Positions 1-2,444 of a DNA stretch of 11,615 nucleotides are shown in pieces (position 1 is the stretch's first letter; the number at the start of each line of letters is the position of its first letter). The stretch spans positions 1 to 11,615 of the forward strand of contig DAOVER010000073.1 of assembly GCA_030668875.1 (NCBI GenBank), written 5' to 3'. The stretch comes from Candidatus Heimdallarchaeota archaeon. GTDB taxonomy: Archaea; Asgardarchaeota; Heimdallarchaeia; Heimdallarchaeales; Heimdallarchaeaceae. Under the pieces are notes generated by a model. The model made no database searches and was not told where the DNA came from. It worked only from the letters and a program-made list of their open reading frames with translations. A program made the position numbers and the translations under genes.

Positions 1-178
1 ATTAGAACCAAGGAGCACTAAGCGCAACTGTAGGATGCAAATGGAGCACTTGCACACTCCGCTTCCTCCTACCCCTAATCATGAACCTCATGATTCTTCC
101 CCTCAACGCACGTGAGGGGACCCACTTAAACGACGGTCAGAATGCTTCTGGCAAGTTTGACCAAGTTTCATAACGTGC
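1..178 (-). mobile_element. Left end of a GC-rich, highly structured inserted element interrupting the beta-helix gene (class uncertain; possibly group II intron-like RNA); continues beyond position 1
   Basis: G+C is 89/180 (49%) in 1-180 versus 53/180 (29%) in 181-360. Four adjacent hairpins: ggtca/tgacc 135-162, tcccctca/tgagggga 98-120, aatcatga/tcatgatt 77-95, gtagga/tcctac 30-72 with inner ggag/ctcc 43-60 (GCAA tetraloop on the minus strand). The host repeat period breaks at the same point. Boundary is uncertain by a few nt (about 173-179). Confidence 0.55.
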
Positions 179-1054
179 GTAGTCATTACCAATACATGTA
201 TTATTTGTGATGACATTATATTTTGCTGCTTCTACATGTATACCATGTTCTGTGTTATCTGTGCAAATGTTGTTGAAAAGTGTATTCTCAAGTGAATTAC
301 TATTTTCTAGATATATCCCGTCAACATTGTTGTTATTACATGTATTATTTGAAATCAGTCCATAATCTAAGCTGCCTATATGAATACCATAATCGTTCTC
401 ATTACAGGTGTTATTATTTATTATGTGCCCTCTAGATAAGCTAGATGATCCAACTATGTGAATTCCATAGCCTATAATACTCTGTCCAGAAATACCTACA
501 TGTCCATTGAAAGTGTTGTCAGCAACAGTACAATTATTTGCGTCTAGATACAAACCTATATTGCTATCATTACATACATTATTTGTAATCGTTACAAAAT
601 CTGCTCCTAAAATCGCTATCCCTATTGTTTTATTGCTGTGAAAATAATTGTTCTCTATTATACATGTGTCGTCTGCAACAGTACCTCCAATATAGATAGC
701 ATAGTGTGTATCAGTATAAACTTCACAATTTCTGATGATAAAGTGTTGTGAAGTTCCCGCGACGAATATACCTATAATTGAATCATTAACAATTTTATAA
801 TTCTCAATTATATACGGAGTAGATTCTGAGCCATCTCCTTCTGAACTATATTTGGCAAAATCAACATCATTTATAATCTGAATATTATCAATTTGTGTTA
901 TTGAAAAACGAGGAAAGAAACCTTGATTCTCTTCTACCAGTATGATCTTTTCCTCAAACTCTTGATTAATCTCAACTTCAGCTGTAATTAAGAAACTTAA
1001 AACAAATAGTGATATAATAATACAAGAAACTCCTTTCTTCCTAACTTTAGACAC
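137..1054 (-). CDS. Secreted right-handed parallel beta-helix repeat protein (NosD/CASH, pectin lyase-like fold), apparently truncated at the C-terminus by the insertion
   Basis: The ORF track starts at 1165, but GTG at 1054 is more likely: AGGTG at 1067-1063 with an 8-nt spacer, TTTATTAA at 1097-1090, and a basic-then-hydrophobic signal peptide (SKVRKKGVSCIIISLFVLSFLI). It has a GDGSESTPYIIEN motif and repeated NNxCN..YGIxI coils. The last 13 aa (ARYETWSNLPEAF) come from the GC-rich insert. Confidence 0.85.
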   Translation of the reverse strand: MSKVRKKGVSCIIISLFVLSFLITAEVEINQEFEEKIILVEENQGFFPRFSITQIDNIQIINDVDFAKYSSEGDGSESTPYIIENYKIVNDSIIGIFVAGTSQHFIIRNCEVYTDTHYAIYIGGTVADDTCIIENNYFHSNKTIGIAILGADFVTITNNVCNDSNIGLYLDANNCTVADNTFNGHVGISGQSIIGYGIHIVGSSSLSRGHIINNNTCNENDYGIHIGSLDYGLISNNTCNNNNVDGIYLENSNSLENTLFNNICTDNTEHGIHVEAAKYNVITNNTCIGNDYARYETWSNLPEAF

Positions 1055-1180
1055 CCCATTTACACCTATTATTTCGAGTTTAACATGCTTTAATAAACAA
1101 TAGTAAGAGGCAATTTGCTTTGTATTCAGAGTTCTGTATAATTCTACACAAAGGGGTATGTCCAAGACAAGAAGAAGTTG

Positions 1181-1616: not shown

Positions 1617-2444
1617 ATGAAAAAAAGCAAACAAATAATGACTATATCCTTTGTCCTATTTATTTCACTAAGTCTTATACAGATTTCAAATCTAAGTAAT
1701 TCAGTGAATGCGAAAACTAATTTGACCTTTATAGAGGAAATTAGAATTGAAAGCGATGCTGATTTTGAATTATTCGCGTCTTCAGGTGATGGTTCTGCAA
1801 ATAAACCATATATTATTGAAGAATTTAATGTTACTAGTTCTACTTTGAGTGGAATTAATATCCGTTTCACTACTAAATATTTCATAGTTAGAGATTGTTA
1901 TGTAACTGGTCATTACACTGGAATCAATCTGATAGGAGTTAGTAATGGAACTGGAAAAATAATAAACAATGAGGTTGAACTTAATACAAAAGGAATTTCT
2001 TTATCTAATGTCAATCATTCTGAAATTGCTTACAACAATATTATTAACAATACAATGACTGGAATCCAATTAGGAACAGAAGATACTAGTAGCGTTGAGC
2101 CAATTTATGGTAACATCATTCATCATAACAACTTTATATCCAATGATTGGTATTATGTGAATGGGGTATTTACACCATCCAGTGATCATCAAGCAATAGA
2201 TGAAGGTATTGAAAACTTCTGGTACGATAATTCGACTAATGAAGGTAATTACTGGGATGATTATGAAGGTACGGGAGTATATACAATTGAAGGAGAAACA
2301 GGGTCAGAAGATCCATATCCATTAACTGAACAAGCTGACTATGCTACAGTAGAGACACCAATGAATTATTGGGCTACAGTTCTAAGCTTATCTTTGGCTG
2401 CAATGTTTGTATTCATAACACGAAAAAATATGAAACATAAATAA
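1617..2444 (+). CDS. Membrane-anchored surface protein with NosD/CASH parallel beta-helix domain
   Basis: Signal peptide MKKSKQIMTISFVLFISLSLI; GDGSANKPYIIEE motif; NN..GI coils; GNYWDDY and EDPYPL motifs typical of archaeal NosD-like proteins; C-terminal TM helix plus basic tail RKNMKHK; GGGAG upstream of the ATG. Confidence 0.9.
   Translation: MKKSKQIMTISFVLFISLSLIQISNLSNSVNAKTNLTFIEEIRIESDADFELFASSGDGSANKPYIIEEFNVTSSTLSGINIRFTTKYFIVRDCYVTGHYTGINLIGVSNGTGKIINNEVELNTKGISLSNVNHSEIAYNNIINNTMTGIQLGTEDTSSVEPIYGNIIHHNNFISNDWYYVNGVFTPSSDHQAIDEGIENFWYDNSTNEGNYWDDYEGTGVYTIEGETGSEDPYPLTEQADYATVETPMNYWATVLSLSLAAMFVFITRKNMKHK

Follow-up and report, generated by a model that had tools for sequence, protein, structure and literature searches.

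The 11,615-nt stretch of DNA analysed here (the window) opens contig C5 of a 3.2-Mb Candidatus Heimdallarchaeota assembly with a GC content of 34%, and it begins inside a mobile element. Positions 1-180 (plus strand) form the right-hand end, 180 nt long, of a MITE-like repeat of ~399 nt that derives from an IS607-family TnpB element and is non-autonomous; the start of the contig cuts this copy, and full-length copies lie elsewhere in the same genome (G000 C29:51574-51972 and C83:33626-34024, both ~399 nt and without an ORF). The segment differs from its adjoining flank in base composition (49% versus 31% GC) and matches about 26 places in the genome, many of them at contig ends. Directly beyond it lies a host gene for a NosD/right-handed beta-helix protein (182-1165, minus strand) that has been truncated by the insertion, its reading frame entering the element and stopping at 137, such that the element has replaced the C-terminus. 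The second NosD/right-handed beta-helix gene of the window is found at 1617-2441 (plus strand).

Longer elements share with the ~399-nt repeat only its last 86 nt (95-180, plus strand), a conserved module common to MITEs and to autonomous elements (on C48, C37, C87, C15 and C29) that we read as the core scaffold of an omegaRNA/reRNA. About 26 copies of this module are present in the genome, and it occurs in 22 of the 29 family relatives searched. In the autonomous layout, an IS607-type tnpA is followed by a gene for a 638-aa TnpB-like protein and then by the module, all on the same strand. For the autonomous copy at G000 C48:36214-38870, the module begins 3 nt past the stop codon of the 638-aa ORF (L009:1045-2958, corresponding to C48:36844-38757); across C48, C37 and C87, a TnpB-fold ORF of 638-644 aa has a stop codon that either precedes the module by 3-7 nt or overlaps with it, which puts the module in the right-end, same-strand position just 3' of a tnpB-family gene that marks TnpB guide RNAs. 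The tnpA upstream of the TnpB-like ORF (L009:415-1002) encodes 196 aa with Pfam MerR and Resolvase domains and scores 163.8 bits (cut-off 110, E = 3e-48) against the NCBIfam model NF033518, "IS607 family transposase"; a serine-recombinase TnpA with an N-terminal MerR-type HTH, placed before tnpB, is the hallmark of the IS607 family. A different arrangement is seen at the start of contig C29 (L010, G000 C29:1-1842), where a canonical 418-aa TnpB (NF040570, 135 bits) comes first, an AT-rich antisense ORF of 209 aa second, and a 3'-end fragment of the 638-aa gene with the 86-nt module last; two different TnpB elements have been combined at this locus, by nesting or by rearrangement.

The right boundary of the element can be placed to the base. 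In 129 distinct copies, taken from this genome, from 22 relatives and from public contigs of Heimdallarchaeota, the homology ends at T180, and the flanks from +1 (181 on) have background base composition and differ in 129 of 129 cases, the module thereby ending at the transposon boundary and giving way to copy-specific sequence, as the scaffold of a TnpB guide RNA does. The final conserved base at 180 (plus strand), which marks the boundary of element and scaffold alike, is unpaired and is a T in at least 90% of copies; by analogy, it may be equivalent to the fixed base that flanks IS607 reRNAs on the right (PMC10711439). The host flank at 181-200 (plus strand) is the predicted guide segment and would form the 3' end of the RNA, a role assigned by homology of position (PMC10097598, PMC10711439) and with a guide length of ~16-20 nt assumed from other TnpB systems.

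Uninterrupted versions of the target sites were sought as well. A search of 23 genomes of the genus with the window's own flank (181-560) returned no orthologue. For the full-length copy on C29, the left flank has orthologues, and the matching right flank adjoins the copy on C83; in relatives, the left flank of C29:51574 and the right flank of C83:33626 are contiguous in an uninterrupted orthologous site. About 5 nt of target are unaccounted for in this composite empty site, and the exchange of flanks suggests either that two MITE copies have recombined or that the assembly is chimeric at this repeat. A search of 29 left-end flanks for a transposon-adjacent motif (TAM), the signal by which TnpB systems license cleavage of the vacated site, gave no clear motif beyond A/T richness.

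Within the module, ACGCACGT (106-113) is the exact reverse complement of ACGTGCGT (173-180), and the first of these words supplies the 7-nt loop (106-112) of a hairpin formed by 98/99-105 with 113-119/120, exactly as the preliminary description of this DNA had reported from the letters alone. The 8-mer has no further occurrence on either strand of the whole 11.6-kb window; in 200 dinucleotide shuffles of the window its mean count is 0.01 and none reaches 2. The outermost pair, A106-T180, is not maintained (72 of 102 copies), and the conserved helix is that of 107-112 with 174-179. The same description had placed the pairing in a mobile element and at its very end, which the boundary at 180|181 confirms; it had also supposed that the partner spans the junction of host and insert and that the loop reads this junction or the target. 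Here the data disagree, in that each of the 8 nt belongs to the element, with conservation across more than 100 copies, the partner of the loop is the element's own invariant last 6-7 nt, and the flanks vary freely while the loop stays fixed. A downstream alpha-prime partner, the other explanation it had offered for the loop, was not found either: the full 399-nt copy, scanned from end to end, holds no second partner for the loop heptamer.

The comparison of homologous copies that the preliminary description had called for is positive with respect to the terminal bases of the element. In an alignment of 102 distinct copies of the 95-180 module (A1), 97.1% of the cells of helix 107-112/174-179 are paired, and within the family compensation has occurred at three of the six pairs, from C-G to U-A (3 cells), from G-C to A-U (6 cells) and from C-G to U-A (1 cell). 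None of 500 shuffles reaches the observed count of double-change cells, and pairing collapses to 1-80% in controls in which the partner is slid. Furthermore, paralogous elements, obtained by a protein search of the class followed by extraction of the 3' flanks (alignment A2), keep the pairing with other sequences. At 40-47% protein identity, five of seven pairs are compensatory (24 cells; again 0 of 500 shuffles reach this), with the word pairs CGCAUAC/GUAUGCG (including the paralogue at G000 C95), CGCAUGU/ACAUGCG, CACAUAC/GUAUGUG, CACAUGC/GCAUGUG, UGCAUAC/GUAUGCA and UGCACG/CGUGCA. At ~30% identity, four copies belonging to another family have a GUCAGG/CCUGAC hairpin whose loop, CACAAAAC, pairs with GUUUUGUG, the last bases before the divergent flanks in these relatives. 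A few subfamilies have a one-base bulge in the tail. Judged by this comparative sequence evidence, the pairing of 107-112 with 174-179 is selected and not a product of chance.

The remainder of the module is structured too. Stem-loop 1 (99-119, plus strand) has the stem 99-105/113-119 around the 7-nt loop, can be extended by T98-A120, is paired in 96% of cells with double changes at four of seven pairs (A1), and is wholly replaced in distant relatives by UCGCUG/CAGCGA or GUCAGG/CCUGAC. A composite second stem-loop (128-168, plus strand; 128-131/165-168, 135-139/158-162 and 144-146/150-152) likewise covaries: pairing in helices 3-6 amounts to 84-99%, with GGUCA/UGACC in some copies and GGUUA/UAACC in others. 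Because stem-loop 1 and this second stem-loop covary along with the loop-tail pairing, both helices of a pseudoknot are supported, its 5' strand (CGCACG, 107-112, plus strand) lying within the loop of stem-loop 1 and its 3' strand (CGUGCG, 174-179, plus strand) being the last paired bases of the scaffold. Between stem-loop 1 and a CAAG motif, paralogues and a sister-genus subfamily (G024 copies L045-L053) have a small GGGG...CCCC hairpin (A2 columns 76-91), which also covaries; it is deleted in the window's own subfamily and is thus dispensable for that scaffold.

The protein encoded by the autonomous copies has a predicted fold that is of the TnpB/Cas12f type. It matches the Pfam Cas12f1-like TNB domain, and its C-terminal 140 aa align to Cas12f/TnpB chains in the PDB. 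Profile alignment (hhalign) of the protein family to the canonical 418-aa TnpB of the same genome recovered the RuvC-III motif alone, so placing the full-length protein took a fold search, in which its AlphaFold2 model (pLDDT 86; input alignment of 17 sequences) matched only Cas12f, TnpB (8iaz, 8h1j) and other Cas12 structures, with E-values of 1e-9 to 1e-5. Within the family (alignment A3; 635-650 aa, ~1.5 times the usual TnpB), D433 and E532 are invariant and a CxxC...CxxC zinc finger, which in TnpB/Cas12f nucleases separates RuvC-II from RuvC-III, is conserved, and in place of the RuvC-III Asp of the D-E-D triad there is a conserved His617 (NTHxNAAxNI). Branches with this D-to-H change at RuvC-III have been described and are thought to be active (Altae-Tran et al., PMC10691335); with this substitution, the protein might cleave DNA or might only bind it. 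The N-terminal ~300 aa are all-helical and match nothing by sequence. Copies in the databases are mostly annotated as "hypothetical protein"; in a sequence search, the family appears to be confined to Heimdallarchaeota, and a literature search found no published description of it.

Taken as a whole, we consider it very likely (a probability of roughly 0.88) that 95-180 of the plus strand is the scaffold of a TnpB-type omegaRNA/reRNA, located at the right end of an IS607 element and containing an internal pseudoknot. Such a scaffold would fold into stem-loop 1 and the composite stem-loop, with the small hairpin added between them in relatives, and CGUGCG, directly 5' of the guide, would pair with CGCACG to give an H-type pseudoknot, so that the bases adjoining the guide engage the apical loop of stem-loop 1 as they do in this class of RNA. 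The pseudoknot would be the conserved core by which TnpB/Cas12-family proteins hold the RNA and present the guide, with the adjoining host flank, from 181 to ~200, serving as that guide. With the guide drawn from the host flank, each copy would have a guide of its own and the pseudoknot would remain constant. We infer that the RNA is transcribed and that it associates with the 638-aa protein, which MITE copies would recruit in trans; at the vacated site, the RNA would direct the binding or cleavage of DNA.

The preliminary description had assumed an RNA of the minus strand, an assignment at odds with the module being co-linear with, and directly 3' of, the TnpB-like gene. One-sided changes in the pseudoknot point the same way, with 13 that leave a G.U pair on the plus strand versus 3 on the minus strand in A1 and at least 7 versus 0 in A2, as do those in the nested stems (59 versus 29 in favour of the plus strand); since the copies are related and the asymmetry is modest, this wobble evidence is suggestive of the strand and not decisive. 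Minus-strand folding of 1-200 is unremarkable (z = -1.25). Together, co-linearity and wobble bias make the plus strand the most likely source of the RNA. As for expression, the public sequencing runs that carry the element as DNA are marine-sediment metagenomes, and among RNA-labelled runs, which were examined as contigs only, the only hit is a 247-nt metatranscriptome contig of low depth that contains a related copy of 97-180 with other flanks, its strand and ends being unreadable from the contig.

Several alternatives to the guide-RNA scaffold with a pseudoknot were weighed. The one that fares best, while still being improbable, retains the same plus-strand RNA and has 106-113 and 173-180 form a nested closing stem that replaces stem-loop 1, for example as a switch between processing and protein-bound states. 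Minimum-free-energy folding of the single sequence 95-200 indeed uses the 8-bp long-range helix in this way and dissolves stem-loop 1, and T113 can join either helix. Set against this, stem-loop 1 covaries strongly and is exchanged wholesale in distant relatives with the loop-tail pairing kept, A106-T180 is not conserved, T113-A173 and the pair closing stem-loop 1 are in competition in the window's family, and both helices coexist in the TnpB RNAs whose structures have been solved (PMC10097598). Given the preference of the energy model for the nested helix, the co-formation of both helices in a pseudoknot is a proposal from their covariation and from analogy to those structures; the pseudoknot would also be unusually tight, with a 7-nt loop and a linker of only one nt.

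A second alternative, which we regard as highly unlikely, locates the signal in DNA: the hairpin and its complement would mark a site of cleavage or recombination in single-stranded or cruciform DNA, in the manner of IS608. IS608-type elements use a Y1 HUH TnpA and have subterminal imperfect hairpins at both ends, with a 4-nt guide located 5' of the hairpin foot. Transposase-binding DNA is needed at the right end as well, and the two ends do share an imperfect inverted repeat, AATCTTGCCAGAAG / CTTCTGGCAAGTTT (window 144-168; at the left end, for example, C29:51605-51625), which coincides in part with the composite stem-loop at 128-168 (CTTCTGGCAAG); the right end further carries the direct repeat CAAGTTTGAC-CAAGTTTCAT. 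These end repeats are probably DNA bound by the serine recombinase that overlaps the second RNA stem, in which case that sequence would be doubly constrained. The loop-tail pairing itself behaves otherwise: it uses the loop and not the 4 nt at a hairpin foot, the left end has no equivalent loop/terminus pairing, and G.U is tolerated where A.C is not, which points to RNA. Moreover, the linked IS607 serine recombinase, which is not a Y1 enzyme, acts on double-stranded DNA (PMC10711439), and end recognition of the IS200/IS605 (IS608) type was rejected.

Still less credible is the original proposal of the preliminary description, a minus-strand RNA resembling an intron or a bridge RNA in which the loop is a built-in guide to the junction or target. 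The two words are of course complementary on either strand and the partner lies at the very end of the element, yet that partner is invariant element sequence, the target flanks are free to change, independently of the loop, wobble changes lean towards the plus strand, and the TnpB-like and serine-recombinase genes are on the strand opposite to the one that this reading requires. No alpha-prime is present in the full element, and no RT or IS110 transposase accompanies it. Searches of Rfam at the gathering threshold and at E <= 10 with the window, with 1-400 and with the full 399-nt copy (both strands) returned nothing relevant. The specific analogies that the description had drawn fall with this. 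A group II intron would show GUGYG at its 5' end, possess domains I-VI, of which domain V is conserved, and pair with the flanking exon through EBS-IBS, and it would usually encode an RT/maturase; the 399-nt element has no Rfam match and no ORF, and its flanks show no covariation with the loop. A group I intron was likewise set aside for want of an Rfam match. IS110/IS1111 elements combine a DEDD + Tnp transposase with a 5' non-coding RNA, the bridge RNA, two loops of which pair with target and donor; here, the associated genes encode IS607 TnpA and a TnpB-like protein, and the partner of the loop is internal and invariant. Finally, chance complementarity within a GC-rich repeat, or the coincidental match of an ordinary alpha loop that the description had held in reserve, deserves practically no weight, for although some 8-nt complement in 180 nt is not rare (about 0.2 by its own estimate), this one is expected 0.01 times in the window and is conserved and covarying in more than 120 copies as well as in paralogues with other sequences. 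In sum, the preliminary description is partly supported, being right about a real, selected pairing that belongs to a mobile element, and wrong about its strand and about the reading of the target.

Beyond the structure itself, the genome has ~26 right-end modules and only ~3 near-intact TnpB-like genes, and this imbalance suggests that the MITE copies may serve as a guide library in trans. As a tentative idea that may well prove wrong, the gene-less MITEs could amount to a dispersed, CRISPR-array-like library of guides loaded in trans onto the ~640-aa D-E-H TnpB-like protein, which would drive MITE retention or regulate the genes into which the MITEs have inserted, and a paralogue beside a tRNA-Cys gene might be a domesticated RNA-guided DNA binder. 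This paralogue, of ~40% identity (G000 C95:34008-36131, L218; loci L187-L197 and L201), is single-copy; in 10 or more genomes of the genus it is found at one and the same locus, with a tRNA-Cys(GCA) gene 55-60 nt away on the opposite strand. At its guide position, ~20 nt resemble a degenerate copy of the 5' part of tRNA-Cys. The C95-type paralogue may be an immobilised or domesticated element.

What had looked like a self-recognising hairpin would thus be explained as the pseudoknot core standard to TnpB-type guide RNAs, with no new mechanism required. For undescribed IS607-like elements and MITEs of Heimdallarchaeota, scaffold and guide can now be delimited to the base, and covariation yields a structural model, made up of stem-loop 1, a small hairpin present in some members, a variable stem-loop and the pseudoknot, with which such RNAs could be annotated in Asgard genomes, where the proteins are mostly "hypothetical". 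The system additionally offers a compact 86-nt scaffold paired with a large D-E-H relative of TnpB.

The closest known counterparts are the IS607 TnpB systems, exemplified by the ISXfa1 reRNA and by ISFba1 (PDB 8iaz), in which a serine-recombinase tnpA likewise precedes a tnpB-like gene. The ISXfa1 reRNA has three stem-loops and a pseudoknot between the guide-flanking bases and the apical loop of stem-loop 1; this pseudoknot is required for activity, and the fixed right-flanking base belongs to the scaffold (Yoon et al., PMC10711439). The RNA proposed here shares the right-end scaffold on the tnpB strand, the stem-loops and pseudoknot, the guide taken from flanking DNA, and the fixed final base after the paired bases. 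It departs from IS607 systems in its short 86-nt conserved scaffold and almost fully paired 7-nt loop, and in a protein of 635-650 aa as opposed to ~400, with a large helical N-terminal half and His for the RuvC-III Asp; unlike ISXfa1 and ISFba1, moreover, it resides in a Heimdall archaeon, where most copies are gene-less MITEs. The omegaRNA of ISDra2 TnpB (IS200/IS605, PDB 8h1j) similarly has a scaffold bounded by the right end of the element and a guide-proximal pseudoknot with the stem 1 loop: nt -5 to -3 (with -6 and -2), 5' of the guide, pair with -103 to -105 in the loop of stem 1, an interaction that its authors consider common to all Cas12 guide RNAs (PMC10097598). ISDra2 differs in relying on a Y1 HUH transposase and single-stranded DNA transposition where an IS607 serine recombinase is found here, in a 116-nt scaffold with a triplex compared with 86 nt, and in a pseudoknot of three Watson-Crick and two non-canonical pairs with a 19-nt loop compared with six Watson-Crick pairs and a 7-nt loop. 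The group II EBS-IBS and alpha-alpha' interactions and the IS110 bridge RNA, by contrast, resemble this RNA only in the pairing of a loop near the end of an element; EBS-IBS and bridge-RNA loops read, and covary with, exon or target DNA, whereas here the partner is internal and the 3' flank would read the target. The kind of feature is therefore already known, and its undescribed member is the RNA of these Asgard IS607-like elements and their MITEs.
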